From the NCBI GenBank assembly GCA_020426845.1, contig JAGQPF010000123.1:1-34146 (forward strand): a DNA stretch of 34,146 nucleotides, written 5' to 3'. Source of the DNA: Planctomycetales bacterium (GTDB taxonomy: Bacteria; Planctomycetota; Planctomycetia; Pirellulales; Pirellulaceae). A program made the position numbers and the translations under genes. Positions 21,615 to 28,431 of this stretch are shown one piece after another. Numbering within the stretch: position 1 is the stretch's first letter; each line of letters starts with the position of its first letter. The notes under the pieces are model-generated. The model saw nothing but the letters and a program-made list of their open reading frames with translations, was not told the origin of the DNA and ran no database searches.

Positions 21615-22228
21615 GAGCCGTCGCGTCACGCCGGCCGACTCGCGCCGAACTCGAAGCGGCTCGGGACAAGCTGGTTCCCGACGTGATTGCGGACGATCTC
21701 GAGTTGCTGTTTGTCGGCATCAACCCCAGCTTGTATTCCGCCGCGCTCGGTCAACACTTCGCCCGCCCCGGCAATCGATTCTGGCCCGCGTTGCACGGAG
21801 CCGGCTTCACACCGCGACTCTGGTCGCCCCCCGAGCAAGCGAATCTGGTGGAGCAGGGCATCGGGATCACGAACGTGGTTGCACGAGCCACCGCGCGAGC
21901 CGATGAGCTATCCCGCGACGAACTTGTGCAAGGCATGCAGCGTCTGACGGCGCTGGCAGAACAACATCGAATCGTGCACATCGCGTTTCTGGGCATCACG
22001 GCATATCGCACCGGGTGCGACCGCCAACAGGCCGTCATCGGGCCGCAGGCAGAGCGTATCGGCAACGCCGCCGTCAGTGTGCTGCCCAATCCCAGCGGGC
22101 TCAACGCCCATTATCAGCTGGCCGATCATATCGCGTTGCTCAAGGCGCTTCGACAGCGGATCCGAGGCTCGAGGGCGCGAGCCTGTGGAGTCGCATGCAC
22201 AGGCCCCGCCAAGGGCGACAGACGGTAG
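21611..22228 (+). CDS. mug: G/U mismatch-specific uracil-DNA glycosylase (Mug/TDG, UDG family 2)
   Basis: LLFVGINPSLYSAALGQHFARPGNRFW matches the Mug active-site region (GINPG…PANRFW), and NPSGLN lies near the C-terminus. It is a GTG start. The last approximately 12 codons run into the repeat array, so the stop is uncertain. Confidence 0.75.
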   Translation: MRAVASRRPTRAELEAARDKLVPDVIADDLELLFVGINPSLYSAALGQHFARPGNRFWPALHGAGFTPRLWSPPEQANLVEQGIGITNVVARATARADELSRDELVQGMQRLTALAEQHRIVHIAFLGITAYRTGCDRQQAVIGPQAERIGNAAVSVLPNPSGLNAHYQLADHIALLKALRQRIRGSRARACGVACTGPAKGDRR

Positions 22229-22690
22229 CCCCAGGCGCAAGCCGGCGCAAGCCCGTGGAGTGGCGCGGGCCGCGCGCAAAAAGCCCCGGAGGGCCGGAGG
22301 GGCGACAGACGGTAGCCGTGGGCGCAAGCCGGCGCAAGCCCAGGGAATGAGGCGCGGGCCGCGCGCAAAAAGCCCCGGAGGGGCGACAGACGGTAGCCTT
22401 GGGCGCAAGCCCAAGGAATGAGGCGCGGGCCGCGCGCAAAAAGCCCAGGAGGGGCGACAGACGTTTGCCCTGGGCGCGAGCCGGCGCAAGCCCAGGGAAT
22501 GAGGCCCGGGCCGCGCGCAAAAAGCCCCGGAGGGGCGACAGACGGTAGCCTTGGGCGCAAGCCCAAGGAATGAGGCGCGGGCCGCGCGCAAAAAGCCCCG
22601 GAGGGGCGACAGACGGTAGCCCTGGGCGTAAGCCGGCGTAAGCCCAGGGAATGAGGCGCGCAAGCCGCGCAGCGCCGGCGGCTCGCGCGG
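22170..22690. repeat. Family-C tandem array, orientation 1: about 6 copies of a 66-78-bp unit (GCGCGGGCCGCGCGCAAAAAGCCCCGGAGGGGCGACAGACGGTAGCCnnGGGCGCAAGCC[GGCGCAAGCC]CAGGGAATGAG)
   Basis: The repetition is visible in the sequence. Each unit holds two palindromes (gcgcgg-g-ccgcgc; gcccc-gga-ggggc) flanked by an A5 run, which reads as a hairpin + U5 on the minus strand. Peptides repeat in the shadow ORFs on both strands. Confidence 0.9.
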
Positions 22691-22735
22691 TTCAATGAAC
22701 ACGTCGCCCCGCAAGGCAGAGCCAACTCGCACAAC

Positions 22736-23000
22736 TCCACGGGCTTGCGCCCGTGGCTACCTTCTGTCGCCCCTTGCGGGGCTGGTGCGCGTGGTGTGCG
22801 CGACTCCACGGGCTTGCGCCCGTGGCTACCTTCTGTCGCCCCTTGCGGGGCTGGTGCGCGTGGCGTGCGCGACTCCACGGGCTTGCGCCCGTGGCTACCT
22901 TCTGTCGCCCCTTGCGGGGCCTGGTGCGCGTGGTGTGCGCGACTCCACGGGCTTACGCCCGTGGCTACCTTCTGTCGCCCCTTGCGGGGCCGGTGCGCAT
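22736..23000. repeat. Family-C tandem array, inverted orientation: 4 copies of a 69-bp unit (CACGGGCTTGCGCCCGTGGCTACCTTCTGTCGCCCCTTGCGGGGCTGGTGCGCGTGGTGTGCGCGACTC)
   Basis: The units are roughly the reverse complement of those in 22170-22690 and lie about 45 bp from them. This creates an approximately 800-bp quasi-palindromic region between mug and the propeller gene. Confidence 0.9.
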
Positions 23001-23083
23001 CGTTGCTACTGACTTGCATCCGCCGCAGGCTCGGCGGAAAATACAAATCCAAGCAATTTCCCTCCATTCGCTCAGGCCTACCC

Positions 23084-24307
23084 ATGTCGCGACGCGCACT
23101 CTTTGCCACCTCACTTGCCCTGCTGGCGTCCGGTCTCCTTCATTCCTCACACGTCAGTGGCGAGCAGCCGTGGACGCAGTGGCGTGGCCCGCATGGCGAC
23201 GGGCACTCGGACGCCCCGGCGCTGCTTCGTTGGAATGACGAGAACGTGACCTGGAAGACGGCATTGCCGGGGCTCGGCCAATCGTCGCCGGTCGTTTGGG
23301 GCGACCGTATCTTCTTGACCGGCGCCGAGAACGATGGCGCCAAGCGGATCGTGTTCTGCGTCTCGCGGAAAAACGGCAAACTGCTCTGGCAGCAGACCGC
23401 CTGGACGGGCGACGCGGAGAAGACGCACCAGATGAATCGTTGGGCGTCCGCGACGTGCGCCACCGACGGCGAGCGGGTCGTGGCCTTCTTTGGCCGCGGC
23501 GGGCTGCACTGTTATTCGATGGACGGCACGCGGCTCTGGTCGCGCGAGCTGGGCGATTTTGAAAACGTCTGGGGCACTGCCGCGTCGCCGATCATCGCGG
23601 GCGAGCTCGTGATTCAAAATTGTGACGCCGAGGACAGCGGGTCATGCCTGGTCGCCCTGAACAAGGAGACGGGGGCCGAGGTGTGGCGCACGGCCCGCGA
23701 GCAACTGCGTGGCTGGTCAACGCCGGTCGTGGTGGCCAACGGTGACAAGCAAGAGCTGGTGCTCAACGGCGAGACCGGAGTGTTTGGCTACGACTTGGCC
23801 AGCGGCGCCCAACTCTGGTTCAGCAAGGGCGACACCGGCCGCGGCACCCCCACCGTGACGCCGACGGGCGACGGGCTGCTGGTCGTCGTCAACGGACGGC
23901 CTGGCGACATGTTCGCCGTGCAAGCGGACGGCAAGGAAGTCTGGCGGACCAAGCGCAAAGGCGGCCGCGACTTGCCCTCGCCGATCGTGCTCGACGGCCA
24001 GGTGATCGTCGTCAGCTTGCGCCCCGGCACCGCGACCAGCTACATCGCCTCCAGTGGCAAGGAGACCGCTCGGCTGCGGCTGGACGGCAGCTTCTCCGCG
24101 TCGCCGATCGCCGTCTCGGGACACGCGATCATCCCCAACGAAGATGGCTTGGTCTATGTGCTCAAGGCCGGCGACCAGGGCGTGGAGGTGGTTTCGAAGA
24201 ACAAGATCACCTTGCGAGCGGAAAACGAGATCTTCCGCGCTTGCGTGACGCCGCTGGAGGACGGACTGCTGCTGCGGTCCGACCAGACGCTGTACCTGAT
24301 CCAGTAA
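23084..24307 (+). CDS. secreted PQQ-like beta-propeller repeat protein (BamB-like fold)
   Basis: The signal peptide is MSRRALFATSLALLASGLL. Repeated …DG.(L/V)W… blades (GKLLWQQT, GTRLWSREL, GAEVWRT, GAQLWFS, GKEVWRT) are present. The listed 520-aa ORF is over-extended through the repeat array. Confidence 0.8.
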   Translation: MSRRALFATSLALLASGLLHSSHVSGEQPWTQWRGPHGDGHSDAPALLRWNDENVTWKTALPGLGQSSPVVWGDRIFLTGAENDGAKRIVFCVSRKNGKLLWQQTAWTGDAEKTHQMNRWASATCATDGERVVAFFGRGGLHCYSMDGTRLWSRELGDFENVWGTAASPIIAGELVIQNCDAEDSGSCLVALNKETGAEVWRTAREQLRGWSTPVVVANGDKQELVLNGETGVFGYDLASGAQLWFSKGDTGRGTPTVTPTGDGLLVVVNGRPGDMFAVQADGKEVWRTKRKGGRDLPSPIVLDGQVIVVSLRPGTATSYIASSGKETARLRLDGSFSASPIAVSGHAIIPNEDGLVYVLKAGDQGVEVVSKNKITLRAENEIFRACVTPLEDGLLLRSDQTLYLIQ

Positions 24308-24319
24308 GGTGACTGCAAC

Positions 24320-24775
24320 ATGTCACGACCTGCCCCCGAGCCGGTGGACGTCAGCCGCCTGCGCGAGCTTGCTTCGGCGGTCGTCGCGGCCGACCGCTTT
24401 CCCATGCTGGCCACGATCGACGGCGACCAGCCGCGCGTGCGCCCGGTGTCGCCCGTGCGCACCGACGGCTTCACCGTGTACATCGCCAATCTCCGCAGCT
24501 ACCACAAGACGGGCGAGATCGCGGCCAACCCCAACGTCGAGCTGTGCTATCTCGACGACCGCCACGACCAAGTGCGAATCACCGGACGCGCCGAGCCGCT
24601 GACCGACCGACCGCTGCTCGAGCAGATCTGGGAGGACAACCCGCTGCTCCGCCAGTACCTCGGCTCGCTCGACAACCCCGAATTGATCGTCTACCGAGTC
24701 GAGCCCCTGGCGGTCCGATTCATGCGAGAGTGGGCGTTGGAGTATCTGGAAGTCCCCTTAAATATCGATCAGTAG
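24320..24775 (+). CDS. pyridoxamine 5'-phosphate oxidase-like FMN-binding split-barrel protein
   Basis: At 151 aa, …RVRPVSPVRTDGFTVYIANLRSYHKTGEIAANPNVELCY… has the PNPOx-family pattern. It lies 12 bp after the propeller gene, with an AAGGTGA RBS. Confidence 0.7.
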   Translation: MSRPAPEPVDVSRLRELASAVVAADRFPMLATIDGDQPRVRPVSPVRTDGFTVYIANLRSYHKTGEIAANPNVELCYLDDRHDQVRITGRAEPLTDRPLLEQIWEDNPLLRQYLGSLDNPELIVYRVEPLAVRFMREWALEYLEVPLNIDQ

Positions 24776-25431: not shown

Positions 25432-26730
25432 TCAAGCCTTGGCGACGTCCTCCAAGAACTCGGTGAGCACGTCGCGGCTGACGTGCGGCATGACGACGAC
25501 GTGCGAGTAAAGCTCGGACTTGCCGTCGCGTTCCAGATGCATGGTCGCCAGCGAGTACTTCTTCACCAGTTCGGCGGACGGGCAGCGGAAGTAGACGGTG
25601 TTCGACAACGCATTGGCGCGTGTCGCCCCCAGTTGCGGGAACCGCGACCGGAGTTGTTCGAGCAAGTGCTCGGCATTGGCGAGCATCAGCTTGGCGTCGG
25701 CAACTTGTCGGGCGCGCGCCGGTGGCGTGGTGAAGTAGAAGAACTCCGCCGGCTTCACCGCGTCGCGCGAGCAAGTGATCGTGCCCGGCACGTGGTCAAT
25801 GTACTCCGGATTGTGGATGCGACTGAATCGATCGTTGAACTCGTCGTACACACTTCGCCGCATCACGTACAAGCCTGCCGGCGAGGGAAAGCCGAAAAAC
25901 TTGTGGCAGGAGACCGCGATCGAGTCGTAGCGATCCGCGCCCGCGACTCGCTGCAGCACCTCGGCCGCGTGGTCGGTGAACGGCAGGTAGCCGCCGAACA
26001 ACGCCGCGTCGAGGTGTAGGTAGGACGGGTGGCCGGCGAGCTGGCGCTGAATCGCGTCGACATTGTCGATCGCGCCTTTAAAGGTTGTGCCGATTGTCGC
26101 CACCACCAGCGCCGGCGCCTCCCGATGACGCGCGAGCTGAGCGGCAAGGTCGTCGGGATCCATGGCGCCGTCGGCGAGCGTGCCCACCTCCACCGTCTCC
26201 ATTCCCAACAGATCTCGCAAGATCTGCACCGAGTAATGAGCCTCGCGAGTGAAATAGGCATTGGGCTTCAGACCGGTGCGGCCCTCGAGCAACGTTCGCC
26301 CCATATACATCCCGTGCATGTTGCTGTCCGTGCCGCTGTGAGAAAGAAAGCCCCACGTGTCGTCCTCGGGAAATCCGAACAGCTTGCCGAACTCACGGAT
26401 CGTCGCCGCCTCGTAATCGTGTGTGTTGTAGGGGATCGGACTCTCCTTGAACGGATTGCCCACATTGTTGAAGGCGAAGGCGTCCACGCCGGCGGCAAAC
26501 AGTTGTTTTCGCCAGGCGAAAAACTCGGCAGGCGGAGAGTTCATGTTGATCGGATAGCCCAGCAAGCGATCCTTGACTGCGATCAACTCGGCGCGGCGGC
26601 GCAATCCCTCCGGGGTCAGATCGTCTCCGTACGCCAATTGCTCGTGCCCCGGAAAGCGACAACCGGAGGCGACAGCCAACGCGCCGATTCCGCCCATGCC
26701 CATGCCCAAAAACCGTCGTCGCGAAAGCAT
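25432..26730 (-). CDS. PLP-dependent group II decarboxylase, a histidine-decarboxylase (HdcA) homologue, with a twin-arginine/lipoprotein-type signal peptide
   Basis: It aligns along its length with Gram-negative histidine decarboxylase. GFLSHSGTDSNMHGMYMGR, TIGTTFKGAIDNVDAIQRQL and the PLP-lysine motif SCHKFFG all match. The N-terminus is MLSRRRFLGMGMGGIGALAVASGC. A strong GGTGAGGAG RBS is present. Confidence 0.85.
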   Translation of the reverse strand: MLSRRRFLGMGMGGIGALAVASGCRFPGHEQLAYGDDLTPEGLRRRAELIAVKDRLLGYPINMNSPPAEFFAWRKQLFAAGVDAFAFNNVGNPFKESPIPYNTHDYEAATIREFGKLFGFPEDDTWGFLSHSGTDSNMHGMYMGRTLLEGRTGLKPNAYFTREAHYSVQILRDLLGMETVEVGTLADGAMDPDDLAAQLARHREAPALVVATIGTTFKGAIDNVDAIQRQLAGHPSYLHLDAALFGGYLPFTDHAAEVLQRVAGADRYDSIAVSCHKFFGFPSPAGLYVMRRSVYDEFNDRFSRIHNPEYIDHVPGTITCSRDAVKPAEFFYFTTPPARARQVADAKLMLANAEHLLEQLRSRFPQLGATRANALSNTVYFRCPSAELVKKYSLATMHLERDGKSELYSHVVVMPHVSRDVLTEFLEDVAKA

Positions 26731-26995
26731 GACAAGCTCCTCACCTAAAGGCCCAAGTGACGTGGAATCCTTCGGATGACGGGAAAAGGGGTTCCCCGGA
26801 TGGAGAAGGTGCTTTTCCTCGTCTTGTTAGAAAACAAGCAATTCTCGCGCCGGCAGGCAATGTCGAAGCGACCGTTGGAACCCGGCCTTGCAGTCAACAC
26901 GTTGAAGGTGGATTCGATTGCCAGTTGGCGCCTAGACGTCGCGAAGCGTCACGGCAGAACACAACCGCGCTGTGCGTTCACGCACGCCACGGCTC

Positions 26996-27318
26996 CACGG
27001 GCTCGCGCCCGTGGCTAACGTCTGTCGCCCCTCCGGGGCTTTTTAGCGTAATGAACTTGAGCGAAGTTCGACCGGTTTGCGCCACGTTTCCACAGGCGCG
27101 CTCGCAGATTCACGGGCGCGCACGCCGATCCACGGGCTCACGCCCGTGGCTAACGTCTGTCGCCCTTGGGGGCTTTTTCAGCGTTATGAACTTGAGCGAA
27201 GTTCGACCGGTTTGCGCCGCATTTCCACGGGCGCGCACGCAGATACATGGGCGCGCACGCCACGCGCACAAGCCCCGAAGGGGCGACAGACGTTAGCCAC
27301 GGGCGCGAGCGCGTGGAA
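26996..27318. repeat. Family-C composite repeats: two copies of an approximately 135-bp unit plus one inverted core copy
   Basis: cacgggctcgcgcccgtggctaacgtctgtcgcccctccggggctttttagcgtaatgaacttgagcgaagttcgaccggtttgcgcc… repeats at 26996 and 27131. The inverted core agccccgaaggggcgacagacgttagccacgggcgcgagcgcgtgg is at 27270-27318. Each unit has a hairpin + T5. Confidence 0.85.
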
Positions 27319-27398
27319 CCGCGCGCAACCCCGTTGATCCATCCACGCGACTGCAATTGCTCACTGATGCGCGCGAGTTCATGGAATCAGCGCAAACG

Positions 27399-27875
27399 TT
27401 AGCCGCCCGTCAGGGAGGACATGAGAAATCCCAGGCTGACCCAGCCTCCTTGTCCGATCCCCGCGAGCGCGAACACCATCTGCCCGACGGCGGCGACAGC
27501 GAGTGTCATTTGGCCCAGAGCTAACGGCGCGACGGCGAGCTGCCCGATGGCAAGAATTCGCCCGGTGGCAAGTTGGCCGATGCCGATATAGCCCTGTGCC
27601 ATCTGGCCAATCGCAATTCCGCCGACGGCGAACTGGCCGATCGCGACCACGCCTCGAGCCACTTCTCGCTTGCCCGTTTCGGGATTAATCCCCCGAATGA
27701 TCTGCAACATCGGCAGACCGAAAAGAGAAGTTTCGGAGGTGTACTCCCGGTAGGTCGCCCCATCGTAGTGCACGAACTCGCGAATGGTGCCGTGGGCTGT
27801 GCGCGTCACCGTAAATTTGGGATGCGAGACCAGATACGACTGCTTGACGTGCGAATTGCTGCGTTTGACGACCAT
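27399..27875 (-). CDS. hypothetical protein with a C-terminal hydrophobic heptad (A/G)IGQ(L/M/F)A repeat domain
   Basis: It probably starts at MVVKRSN (AGGAGAA RBS); the listed ORF begins 50 codons upstream inside repeat DNA. The C-terminal 90 aa read AIGQFAVGGIAIGQMAQGYIGIGQLATGRILAIGQLAVAPLALGQMTLAVAAVGQMVFALAGIGQGG. Confidence 0.6.
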   Translation of the reverse strand: MVVKRSNSHVKQSYLVSHPKFTVTRTAHGTIREFVHYDGATYREYTSETSLFGLPMLQIIRGINPETGKREVARGVVAIGQFAVGGIAIGQMAQGYIGIGQLATGRILAIGQLAVAPLALGQMTLAVAAVGQMVFALAGIGQGGWVSLGFLMSSLTGG

Positions 27876-27937
27876 AAGTTCTCCTGTGGCGAGCCAACTT
27901 CGCCAAGCTGCTTTCCCGCTTTTCCCCGAGCTCGCGC

Positions 27938-27975
27938 TCGAGGCTAACGTCTGTCGCCCCTGCAGGGGCTTTGCT
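27938..27975. repeat. Family-C REP-like element, single copy (GGCTAACGTCTGTCGCCCCTGCAGGGGC)
   Basis: It has the same core as the arrays. It is followed by G-tracts. Confidence 0.6.
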
Positions 27976-28007
27976 CGTGGGGGAGCGCGGGGGGAGCGCG
28001 GGGGGGC
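27966..28007 (+). other. G-quadruplex-forming motif (G4-N10-G5-N5-G6-N5-G7) in the divergent intergenic region
   Basis: The sequence is caGGGGctttgctcgtGGGGGagcgcGGGGGGagcgcGGGGGGGcac. It includes the direct repeat GGGGGAGCGCG twice. Confidence 0.35.
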
Positions 28008-28431
28008 ACGCGATTCCACGGCCACGGCATCCTCCCCATTCGCCGACGGGATTCAATTCTTGGCTGCCTGTTTCGGATTTCGTCAATGATTCCCTTCGCT
28101 GCCTCTAGGACCGATAGTGGCACCGCCAACGTGGGCGTGAGATAGTGGGGGGTCCCCATTGCCCCATACCCATGCCTCGCCTCTGACAAGGCATGCCGAA
28201 CACCTCATCCGGCAATCGGCCCCACACGTGGCGGCACGACGAAGACCATTCCCATTGCCAGTGGGGCTTTTTAAACAGGCTGTTACCCGCATGAATGCTC
28301 GCTCCACCATCTATACTTCCACGAAACGTTGCCGTCAACGCTTGCCGTTGCTACGCCCGCATGTCCGTGCTTCCGGGGCACGTCGTTCGGCCACGATGCA
28401 TTACGGAATCTCTCCCCATGCACAAGCGAGC

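Follow-up and report, generated by a model that had tools for sequence, protein, structure and literature searches.

The locus and its product

The window, by which we mean the whole 34,146-nt stretch of DNA that was analysed, has in its ORF list an ATG-initiated open reading frame (ORF 25432-26730, reverse strand) with a product of 432 aa. The features of the gene are collected in Table 1. M1 is the earliest possible start downstream of an in-frame stop, and it is preceded by a Shine-Dalgarno-like GAGGAG at a spacing of 6 nt. The next Met residues are 10 and 12, which lie within the hydrophobic core of the N-terminus, and Met63, which lies within the conserved fold. Orthologues do not begin at an internal Met, and the twin-arginine (RR) segment is kept across at least six bacterial lineages.

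The product matches PF00282 (E 5e-15, 55.4 bits vs a cut-off of 27) and, among the PDB sequences, 8jik (E 4e-46) and 7erv (E 3e-40). Homology to group II decarboxylases extends over approximately residues 48-432 in the comparison with plant SerDC and over residues 81-399 in that with the Photobacterium HDC; roughly the first 47 residues have no counterpart in a group II decarboxylase enzyme. An AlphaFold monomer model built on a 136-sequence alignment reached a pLDDT of 92.7 and a pTM of 0.90 (an 18-sequence alignment yielded an unusable pLDDT of 53). Foldseek matched this model to AlaDC, SerDC and HDC with TM values of 0.78-0.88, and to solved decarboxylases overall with 0.75-0.88, and together the two show the three-domain fold of the group II decarboxylases. 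Judged by its residue set and its modelled fold, the product is a complete group II PLP-dependent decarboxylase. Established for ORF 25432-26730 are the integrity of the gene, the fold, the catalytic residue set, the conservation of the Tat motif and the separate clade.

Table 1. Features of ORF 25432-26730 and its product (positions in the window).
Feature	Positions	Strand	Evidence
Complete gene, 432-aa precursor of a predicted exported group II PLP-dependent decarboxylase	25432..26730	-	ORF, PF00282, PDB matches, AlphaFold
Predicted signal peptide, residues 1-24: S-R-R-R-F-L-G (3-9), Gly/Ala-rich h-region (10-20), A-S-G-C (21-24)	26659..26730	-	TIGR01409, conservation
Variable linker/tether, residues 25-52, from Cys24 to the first conserved core motif K53-x-x-L-L-G-Y-P	26575..26658	-	entropy, pLDDT
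G58-Y-P-I61-N62 motif with Ile61 at the putative substrate-specifying position	26545..26559	-	alignments, profile alignment to 8jg7
S274-C-H-K277: PLP Schiff-base lysine K277 and phosphate-binding H276	25900..25911	-	invariant in alignment
Catalytic loop and neighbouring-subunit contacts (Y310, S321)	25765..25803	-	invariant Y310, S321, R322

Catalytic residues and the substrate-specificity position

All group II PLP-binding and catalytic residues, i.e. H165, D241, A243, T215/T216, G133-T134, H276, K277, Y310 and S321, are invariant in the 18-sequence family alignment and thus compatible with decarboxylation of an amino acid. Their counterparts are the PLP-binding and catalytic residues of AtSerDC and CsAlaDC (PMC11407765). 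The PLP lysine motif, in full S274-C-H-K277-F-F-G, aligns to the S-G-H-K of AtSerDC (Lys314) and of HDC. The catalytic loop reads N-P-E-Y-I-D-H-V-P-G-T-I-T-C-S-R and includes Y310, the proton-donor Tyr, which is conserved in at least 90% of 136 relatives. Y310 and S321 correspond to Tyr341* and Ser352* of AtSerDC, and S321 makes its contact across the subunit interface, with the phosphate of the partner's PLP. The catalytic-loop Tyr protonates the carbanion, and its loss leads to aldehyde synthases or inactive enzymes. For the non-decarboxylase function that the sequence-only reading had offered as an option we found nothing in support, Tyr310 being invariant. An inter-subunit disulfide between Cys275 and Cys320 was considered as a periplasmic adaptation and not adopted, as Cys320 is present in signal-less relatives too and the model is that of a monomer.

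The position that matches Ile61 specifies the substrate in the plant enzymes, being Tyr111 in AtSerDC and Phe106 in CsAlaDC (PMC11407765). The equivalent residue is Glu in bacterial HDC; among the 170 family members 74% have Ile, and in the 18-sequence alignment Val and Met are the alternatives to it. Since the pocket for the side chain appears non-polar (Ile61), we expect the substrate to be neither histidine nor serine, and the substrate class would be a non-polar L-amino acid, as far as one specificity position borrowed from plant enzymes of ~30% identity can indicate. Close to the entrance of the active site there are clade-specific insertions, namely residues 65-79 and a catalytic loop with 6-7 residues more than that of HDC and SerDC.

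The twin-arginine signal

The N-terminus reads M-L-S-R-R-R-F-L-G and is followed by a weakly hydrophobic core (best 12-residue Kyte-Doolittle mean 1.7) that runs to A-S-G-Cys24. The S-R-R-R-F-L-G stretch fits the Tat consensus S/T-R-R-x-F-L-K in the n-region with a moderately hydrophobic h-region behind it. All motifs that had been named from the sequence are indeed present (S3-R-R-R-F-L-G9, A21-S-G-C24 and S274-C-H-K277-F-F-G). Against the curated Tat-signal HMM TIGR01409 the product scores 17.3 bits, marginally above the cut-off of 16.7, which six of the seven family N-termini scored exceed; the score for Pfam PF10518 is below the cut-off (14.1 vs 22.7 bits).

The pattern [ST]RR.F[LFI] occurs in 114/120 close homologues, the remaining six being truncated gene calls, and in 65 of the 74 genome-derived sequences, where the others have a truncated call, a degenerate motif or an unclear start. 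Orthologues with the motif come from the Planctomycetota, Methylococcales, Nitrosomonadaceae (Nitrosomonas), Nitrotoga, Cyclobacteriaceae and Puniceicoccaceae; the single orthologue from Enhygromyxa has only a degenerate H-R-R-D-L-L. In a sister subfamily 42 of the 46 members carry the RR motif, which is absent from all 86 distant full-length relatives (25-40% identity), and the RR-bearing sequences make up one clade. Conservation over 170 aligned members is 99% for F7, 98% for L8 and 95% for C24, and the signal region as a whole is better conserved than the linker after it. In the AlphaFold model residues 1-30 are unstructured (pLDDT <50), and residues 31-40 have a pLDDT of ~62. No tat genes are present within the 34,146 nt of the window. 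We consider Tat export of the product well supported by the conservation of the motif, and the enzyme, with so conserved an export signal, probably works outside the cytoplasm.

Lipobox and linker

The cysteine that follows the hydrophobic core, present at the above 95%, is preceded in our protein by V-A-S-G. Gly at -1 and Ser at -2 fit the pattern [LVI][ASTVI][GAS]-C, and Ala at -3 is to be set against the strict L/V/I. A relaxed PROSITE-type lipobox pattern is matched by 96/120 close homologues. The lipobox varies with the clade: in its relaxed form it is canonical in our protein and in 25/27 Methylococcales (-1 is Gly, Ala or Ser), and the -1 residue is non-canonical in 17/23 Nitrosomonadaceae and 36/42 sister-subfamily sequences, where an AxA-like signal-peptidase-I site follows. 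The Halieaceae-type relatives likewise have a non-canonical -1 residue and then an AxA-like site. Given this combination in some clades, lipidation of the conserved Cys may not be universal. The mean column entropy is 2.79 bits for the linker, vs 1.01 for the catalytic body. Lipid anchoring at Cys24 is thus only moderately supported by these patterns. Of the Tat lipoprotein predicted in the sequence-only reading the Tat signal has held, and the lipid anchor is less certain (Ala/Ser at -3, clade-dependent -1).

Relation to known decarboxylases

The best NCBIfam match of the product is NF002748, the HDC equivalog, with 220.7 bits vs a cut-off of 305; members of the family score 216-224, a true HDC representative 605. 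HdcA of Photobacterium phosphoreum (7ERV) has the fold and the group II subfamily in common with our protein (Foldseek TMt 0.88, 29% identity), and likewise the PLP-binding His, Asp and Lys and the catalytic-loop Tyr. It differs in being cytoplasmic, in lacking a signal peptide and in its shorter catalytic loop. Its motifs are G-G-T-E-G-N, S-G-H-K and G-S-R-N-G, whereas those of the family are S-G-T-D-S-N, S-C-H-K and C-S-R-D-A, and the Glu of its G-Y-P-E is replaced by Ile in our protein. HdcA is moreover paired with a histidine/histamine antiporter or sits in a siderophore cluster, whereas such an antiporter was found neither in the window nor in nine annotated contexts. Because the score is below the NF002748 cut-off, the family forms a clade separate from HDC and Ile takes the place of Glu at the specificity position, the product is, on sequence criteria, not an HdcA orthologue; the homology to HdcA that had been noted earlier stands. 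The family is a previously undescribed one, with members chiefly among planctomycetes and the oxidisers of methane and ammonia. In the public records its members are labelled "histidine decarboxylase" (several) or "pyridoxal-dependent decarboxylase". The former name is probably mistaken as to the substrate, and neither of them points to the predicted location.

The plant enzymes AtSerDC (8JG7) and CsAlaDC (8JIJ/8JIK) are the best matches in sequence as well as in structure (E 4e-46, TM 0.78-0.82). Their PLP-binding and catalytic residues are identical to those of our protein, and the concept of a Y-P-x specificity position is common to both. They carry a C-terminal zinc finger (Cys3-His loop), whereas the ORF product ends at residue 432 without a Cys/His cluster, and at the specificity position they have Tyr (Ser-specific) or Phe (Ala-specific) instead of Ile61. 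Plant SerDC and AlaDC are cytosolic. The L-methionine decarboxylase of Streptomyces (7CIF) belongs to the HDC/SDC-like branch of group II as well and acts on a non-polar substrate (Foldseek E ~1e-27). It is, however, a protein of 557 aa that has a large additional N-terminal portion and is 24% identical, with significant sequence similarity to the ORF product over the C-terminal 165 residues only, and an export signal has not been reported for it.

To our knowledge the characterised group II PLP decarboxylases are all cytoplasmic. In the literature searched we found no natural exported PLP decarboxylase, nor a report on our protein from Nitrosomonas or from methanotrophs. As natural PLP enzymes with Tat export this literature gave PvdN and PtaA, which belong to the class V aminotransferase-like family and not to the group II decarboxylases. 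Both are pyoverdine-tailoring enzymes of Pseudomonas that are exported by Tat, folded and with their cofactor, and act in the periplasm, and PvdN also carries out a decarboxylation (PMC6206403). They act on peptide-bound glutamate and not on free amino acids. Tat export of a cofactor-loaded PLP enzyme is thus unusual, as had been remarked from the sequence, and has a precedent in these two.

Gene context

A gene for an amino-acid/amine antiporter was found adjacent neither in nine annotated contexts nor in the window, and all-against-all clustering of the ORFs around 80 loci gave no neighbour that is conserved across taxa. In two of four contexts of the sister subfamily the gene lies beside, and on the same strand as, genes that encode catabolic enzymes and a TonB-dependent receptor of the outer membrane, and sister-subfamily genes also adjoin a FecI/FecR-type sigma/anti-sigma pair. 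The annotated contexts of the main family show no TonB receptor as a neighbour.

In the Nitrosomonadaceae an SMR transporter gene is located directly 3' of the gene in 20 loci, in a convergent and not a co-oriented arrangement; this is lineage-specific synteny. Three further connections were considered and dropped. A periplasmic route from amino acid via amine to ammonia, through an adjoining flavin amine oxidase of N. nitrosa, was rejected as that enzyme lacks a signal peptide and the arrangement is limited to three loci. Co-transcription with the upstream gene for a 208-aa protein (27399-28025) is unlikely in view of a gap of ~670 nt with repeat hairpins, and for a functional tie with the PNPOx-like gene at 24320-24775 there is no support, since none of the other annotated contexts shows that arrangement.

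Proposed mechanism and alternatives

We propose, with a probability of roughly 0.7, that the protein is exported by Tat as a holo-dimer, is probably tethered by a lipid, and acts in the periplasm as the decarboxylase of a non-polar L-amino acid. The precursor would fold in the cytoplasm, load PLP on Lys277 and dimerise; the dimer would be needed because Tyr310 and Ser321 complete the active site of the partner subunit. The Tat translocase would read S-R-R-R-F-L and move the folded holo-enzyme out, after which the signal would, in our protein, probably be cut before Cys24 and a lipid on this residue would tether the enzyme to a membrane, with residues 25 to about 40-52 as a flexible linker to the folded body. 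In the periplasm it would remove the alpha-carboxyl from an L-amino acid, or from a free amino-acid moiety that forms part of a larger molecule, and thus yield a primary amine and CO2. That the protein is exported, lipidated and dimeric is inferred, as are the class of its substrate and its physiological role; most likely this role is to process amino acids or amino-acid conjugates that are supplied from outside, with which the TonB-dependent receptors next to the gene in two of the four sister-subfamily contexts agree. A periplasmic PLP enzyme that loses its cofactor by abortive transamination cannot be reloaded. Ammonia and methane oxidisers, moreover, make hydroxylamine in the periplasm, a classical PLP poison, which counts against a PLP enzyme in that compartment.

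An ordinary cytoplasmic HdcA, with an N-terminal extension that is merely a mis-called start or a non-functional leftover, would agree with NF002748 being the top NCBIfam match and with the naming of several homologues in the public records. We regard it as highly improbable, since the score is below the cut-off and below that of a true HDC, the clade is separate, Ile61 replaces the HDC Glu, and a histidine/histamine antiporter is not adjacent. M1 is moreover the earliest start and has its GAGGAG, the later Mets being in the core and the fold, and the N-terminus is kept across phyla. It is less improbable, but still unlikely, that the enzyme is exported by Tat and remains unlipidated, with signal peptidase I releasing a soluble periplasmic protein and the Cys having some other role, such as closing the h-region or forming a disulfide. 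About eight of the 120 close homologues have the RR motif and lack the Cys, the Nitrosomonadaceae and the sister subfamily have Val, Thr or Leu at -1 and their AxA-like sites 3-8 residues past the Cys, and even the A-S-G ahead of Cys24 fits the -3/-1 small-residue rule of signal peptidase I. However, such strong conservation of a Cys at the exact end of the h-region is unexpected for the +1 residue of signal peptidase I, the -1 residue is Gly, Ala or Ser in the window protein and in the 25 Methylococcales orthologues mentioned above, and the variable, unstructured linker of 25-30 residues after the Cys is typical of lipoprotein tethers.

The exported enzyme might also act as a tailoring enzyme, on an amino-acid moiety with free alpha-amino and alpha-carboxyl groups in a larger periplasmic, envelope or imported molecule, for example a peptide, the head group of a lipid or a compound that resembles a siderophore, in the way that PvdN and PtaA act on pyoverdine. 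That these two, the only natural Tat-exported PLP enzymes known, work so, that sister-subfamily genes lie by a FecI/FecR-type pair and by TonB-dependent receptors, which are typical of the uptake of siderophores and other large substrates, and that the insertions (residues 65-79 and the longer catalytic loop) are located by the active-site entrance, all speak for it. Nevertheless, the main family has neither a biosynthetic cluster nor a cross-taxa neighbour in the 80 loci, fold and pocket residues are those of the decarboxylases of free amino acids, and the link to the TonB receptor is confined to half of the four sister contexts, with no annotated main-family context showing it. We consider this reading quite unlikely, and retain the probably lipid-tethered periplasmic decarboxylase of a non-polar L-amino acid as the preferred one.

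Implications for the family

The group II decarboxylases in acid resistance and energy conservation depend on a precursor/product antiporter. A family with a conserved Tat signal would shift this decarboxylase chemistry to the periplasm. A naturally export-competent decarboxylase may also be of use in biotechnology.

Members of the family are concentrated among methanotrophs and among ammonia oxidisers, groups with a central part in the cycling of methane and nitrogen; planctomycetes have them too. In methanotrophs and ammonia oxidisers the key oxidations take place in the periplasm, where proteins are exposed to hydroxylamine, a poison of PLP enzymes. Only tentatively, as a possibility that we ourselves rather doubt, might one go further and suppose that a horizontally spread and unrecognised periplasmic decarboxylation exists in methane and ammonia oxidisers, planctomycetes and some marine heterotrophs, with a dedicated role and no need of a transporter partner. 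On this reading the enzyme would be the first group II PLP decarboxylase to work naturally outside the cytoplasm, forming amines and CO2 and consuming protons beyond the cytoplasmic membrane, and its role might be to condition the periplasm of organisms that run copper monooxygenase chemistry there or to pre-process external amino-acid substrates. The identity of the substrate could reveal a new route of extracytoplasmic amine formation or of amino-acid scavenging.

Gene start and predicted export signal

The window protein, a predicted exported group II PLP decarboxylase of 432 residues (N-terminus MLSRRRFLGMGMGGIGALAVASGC), begins at an ATG that is the first possible start after an upstream in-frame stop and is preceded by GAGGAG with a spacer of 6 nt. 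The GC3 of its frame (0.80) is typical of real genes here (window GC 63%). The features named in the sequence-only reading, i.e. a twin-arginine motif, a hydrophobic core, a lipobox-like Cys and the PLP-lysine motif (S-C-H-K-F-F-G, residues 274-280), were all recovered at their positions, and the overall finding of a decarboxylase homologue predicted to be exported stands.

Tested against starts at an internal Met, the RR segment proved to be kept in the orthologues: of the 120 nearest homologues in the database (60-74% identity), 114 carry [ST]RR.F[LFI] near the N-terminus, and the other six are truncated gene calls beginning within the hydrophobic core or the fold. Among species-representative genomes the motif occurs in orthologues from Pirellulaceae and other Planctomycetota, many Methylococcales genera, many Nitrosomonas species, Ca. 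Nitrotoga fabula, Cyclobacteriaceae and Puniceicoccaceae; the single orthologue from Enhygromyxa retains no more than a degenerate H-R-R-D-L-L. An RR motif is also found in a sister subfamily at ~50% identity (42/46; Halieaceae and other marine gammaproteobacteria). Of 86 full-length relatives that share 25-40% identity, none showed an RR motif; in two proteins of a neighbouring clade the N-terminus is of the Sec-type hydrophobic kind. Column entropy is low in the RR motif, intermediate in the h-region and highest in the linker (residues 25-52), but the RR columns of that alignment are 100% by selection, so that the unselected 114/120 is the relevant figure. The curated Tat-signal model TIGR01409 was passed by six of seven N-termini tested, marginally by the window protein (17.3 versus 16.7 bits), which did not reach the cut-off of the Pfam model PF10518. 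Taken together, the signal evidence makes it likely (roughly 0.8) that the window protein is Tat-targeted.

A Cys, usually with x-Pro next, ends the h-region in 95% of the aligned members, and a relaxed PROSITE-type lipobox pattern is matched by 96 of the 120, with Ala or Ser rather than Leu/Val/Ile at -3. The -1 residue is Gly/Ala/Ser in the majority of Planctomycete and Methylococcales orthologues, the window protein (V-A-S-G-C) included. It is Val/Thr/Leu in Nitrosomonadaceae (17/23) and the sister subfamily (36/42), where an AxA-like signal-peptidase-I site lies a few residues past the Cys; the Cys is missing from about eight close homologues. Because the Cys is so frequent and the relaxed pattern fits here, but other members deviate in these ways, lipidation of the window protein is probable, though less secure than the Tat signal, and across the whole family it is not a certainty.

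Fold, catalytic residues and substrate pocket

The only Pfam match is PF00282, the pyridoxal-dependent decarboxylase domain. The top solved relatives by sequence, 8JIK, 8JIJ and 8JG7 (E 4e-46), are tea alanine decarboxylase and Arabidopsis serine decarboxylase, all labelled 'serine decarboxylase' in the sequence table; a Streptomyces methionine decarboxylase matches more weakly. The AlphaFold model (136-sequence alignment; mean pLDDT 92.7, pTM 0.90) falls below pLDDT 50 only in residues 1-30, and Foldseek again picked out these enzymes, along with the Photobacterium histidine decarboxylase (TM 0.75-0.88). The residues that contact PLP or act in catalysis in AtSerDC/CsAlaDC (His201, Asp282, Ala284, Thr252, Gly174-Thr175, His313, Lys314, Ser352* and Tyr341*; PMC11407765) align with H165, D241, A243, T215/216, G133-T134, H276, K277, S321 and Y310, all invariant in the family. 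As judged from the alignment, the window protein has everything needed for decarboxylation. The suggested non-decarboxylase function found no support, since these residues are invariant and there is no sign of another reaction type.

Two further family-invariant residues are Cys275, beside the PLP lysine, and Cys320, beside the partner-subunit phosphate-binding Ser321. Both positions are Gly in HDC and SerDC, and Cys320 is shared with related clades that lack the signal. The pair might form an inter-subunit disulfide; the structural model is of a monomer.

The proposed relation to histidine decarboxylase holds as homology (Photobacterium phosphoreum enzyme, E 3e-40) but not as orthology. The NCBIfam HDC equivalog, whose cut-off is 305 bits, gives the window protein 220.7 (family members 216-224, SDC-like proteins 426-461, a genuine HDC 605), and neighbour-joining of 103 sequences puts the family in a tight clade distant from HDC and the SDC-like group. 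The family has its own S-G-T-D-S-N, S-C-H-K and T-I-T-C-S-R-D-A, replacing G-G-T-E-G-N, S-G-H-K and T-I-x-G-S-R-N-G respectively. An insertion following the G-Y-P motif and a catalytic loop longer by 6-7 residues are family-specific, and the C-terminal zinc finger of the plant enzymes is missing from the window protein. By these sequence measures, orthology to histidine decarboxylase is rejected.

In the plant enzymes the third residue of Y-P-x decides the substrate (Tyr111, serine; Phe106, alanine; PMC11407765). This residue is Glu in HDC, Ile61 in the window protein and Ile/Val/Met across the family; in the sister-subfamily decarboxylases of L086 and L090 it is Gly or Ser. Ile61 might point to a non-polar L-amino acid as substrate, an assignment of low confidence. 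The Y111I mutant of AtSerDC lost serine activity and gained alanine activity only marginally (PMC11407765).

Gene contexts and distribution

Features in the window and at related loci (L-handles)
Feature	Locus	Coordinates	Strand	Remark
Decarboxylase	window	25432-26730	-	
Cys320 codon	window	25780-25782	-	
Cys275 codon	window	25915-25917	-	
PQQ-like/BamB-type beta-propeller ORF	window	22745-24307	+	flanking; listed ORF begins within repeat array
PNPOx-like (PNPOx_N) protein	window	24320-24775	+	~650 nt past decarboxylase 3' end
208-aa repeat-rich membrane protein	window	27399-28025	-	upstream of decarboxylase; no Pfam match
Small membrane protein	window			flanking; no family match
Sulfatase	window			flanking
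FG-GAP protein	window			flanking
Double-hairpin repeats	window	22192-23003, 26967-27340, 27912-27982		
Sister-subfamily locus	L086	3251-11065		ECF sigma factor, FecR, TonB receptor, decarboxylase, FAA hydrolase, HpcH aldolase
Sister-subfamily locus	L090	8001-17323		decarboxylase, TonB receptor, Amdase-family, TPP enzyme, UbiD-family, aldehyde dehydrogenase
SMR transporter	L071	7334-7696	-	
Puniceicoccaceae locus	L049	5424-9212		

The pairing of a pyridoxamine-5'-phosphate-oxidase-like gene with the PLP decarboxylase is probably coincidental, because it was not seen in the other annotated contexts. The real start of the propeller gene is probably the internal MSRRALFATSLALLASG, itself resembling a signal peptide that contains an RR pair, and the 208-aa protein carries a C-terminal run of A-I-G-Q-x-A glycine-zipper-like repeats. 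A GC-rich intergenic double hairpin of ~60-70 nt (core TCCACGGGCTTGCGCCCGTGGCTA..TCTGTCGCCCCTTGCGGGGC) looks REP- or MITE-like; at least 12 copies occur in both orientations, including tandem arrays of 69-nt and 152-nt period, and one cluster lies ~240 nt upstream of the decarboxylase start.

Five close-homologue contexts were each unlike the others, and when all ORFs surrounding 80 genomic loci were clustered, no neighbour proved conserved across taxa, the decarboxylase alone being shared. Whereas classical cytoplasmic decarboxylase systems have an adjacent antiporter, no amino-acid/amine antiporter adjoins the gene in the annotated contexts, which fits an enzyme meeting its substrate beyond the cytoplasmic membrane. 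A same-strand TonB-dependent receptor and catabolic genes accompany the sister subfamily in two of four contexts (L086 and L090), which look like uptake-plus-catabolism loci; the arrangement hints that a compound taken up through the outer membrane is processed.

In 20 Nitrosomonadaceae loci (L058-L085) a convergent gene for an SMR-family (EmrE-like, PF00893) transporter is found within ~10-20 nt of the decarboxylase stop, followed in N. nitrosa and two other loci by a flavin amine oxidase without signal peptide. Nitrosomonas communis Nm44 has two family copies on different contigs (L065, L072). At L049 gamma-glutamyl cyclotransferase-like, kynureninase-like and GDSL hydrolase genes flank the decarboxylase on the same strand with short gaps, an arrangement absent from a second Puniceicoccaceae locus.

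Since ~34 of the best 80 loci belong to Methylococcales or to unnamed gammaproteobacterial MAGs whose sequences resemble those of Methylococcales, and ~25 to Nitrosomonadaceae, the family is concentrated in, not restricted to, users of copper membrane monooxygenases. The identities between Planctomycetota and Proteobacteria (53-66%) suggest horizontal spread.

Proposed function and alternatives

The precursor would fold, bind PLP and dimerise in the cytoplasm, after which Tat would carry the folded holo-enzyme out. A flexible linker and an acylated Cys24 would probably tether it, and in the periplasm it would decarboxylate an L-amino acid, perhaps one whose side chain is non-polar. PvdN and PtaA are an existing precedent: both are PLP enzymes established to be exported by Tat with their cofactor bound (PMC6206403).

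A soluble, non-lipidated periplasmic form, to which the AxA-like sites of other members would be suited, is rather unlikely. A PvdN-like tailoring of a larger molecule would share the export route and is somewhat less likely still. An ordinary cytoplasmic HDC would agree with the homology and with some record names, but is highly improbable in view of the RR motif and the HDC scores. Two general points are in tension with the periplasmic reading: a periplasmic PLP enzyme is not rechargeable after abortive transamination, and ammonia and methane oxidisers make periplasmic hydroxylamine, a classical inhibitor of PLP enzymes.

In public records the members of this family appear as 'pyridoxal-dependent decarboxylase' or 'histidine decarboxylase', no NCBIfam model covers the family, and full-text literature searches turned up no account of a group II decarboxylase that is naturally exported. 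The predicted export would place a familiar enzyme fold and chemistry in an unusual compartment, in a family that is coherent and widespread.
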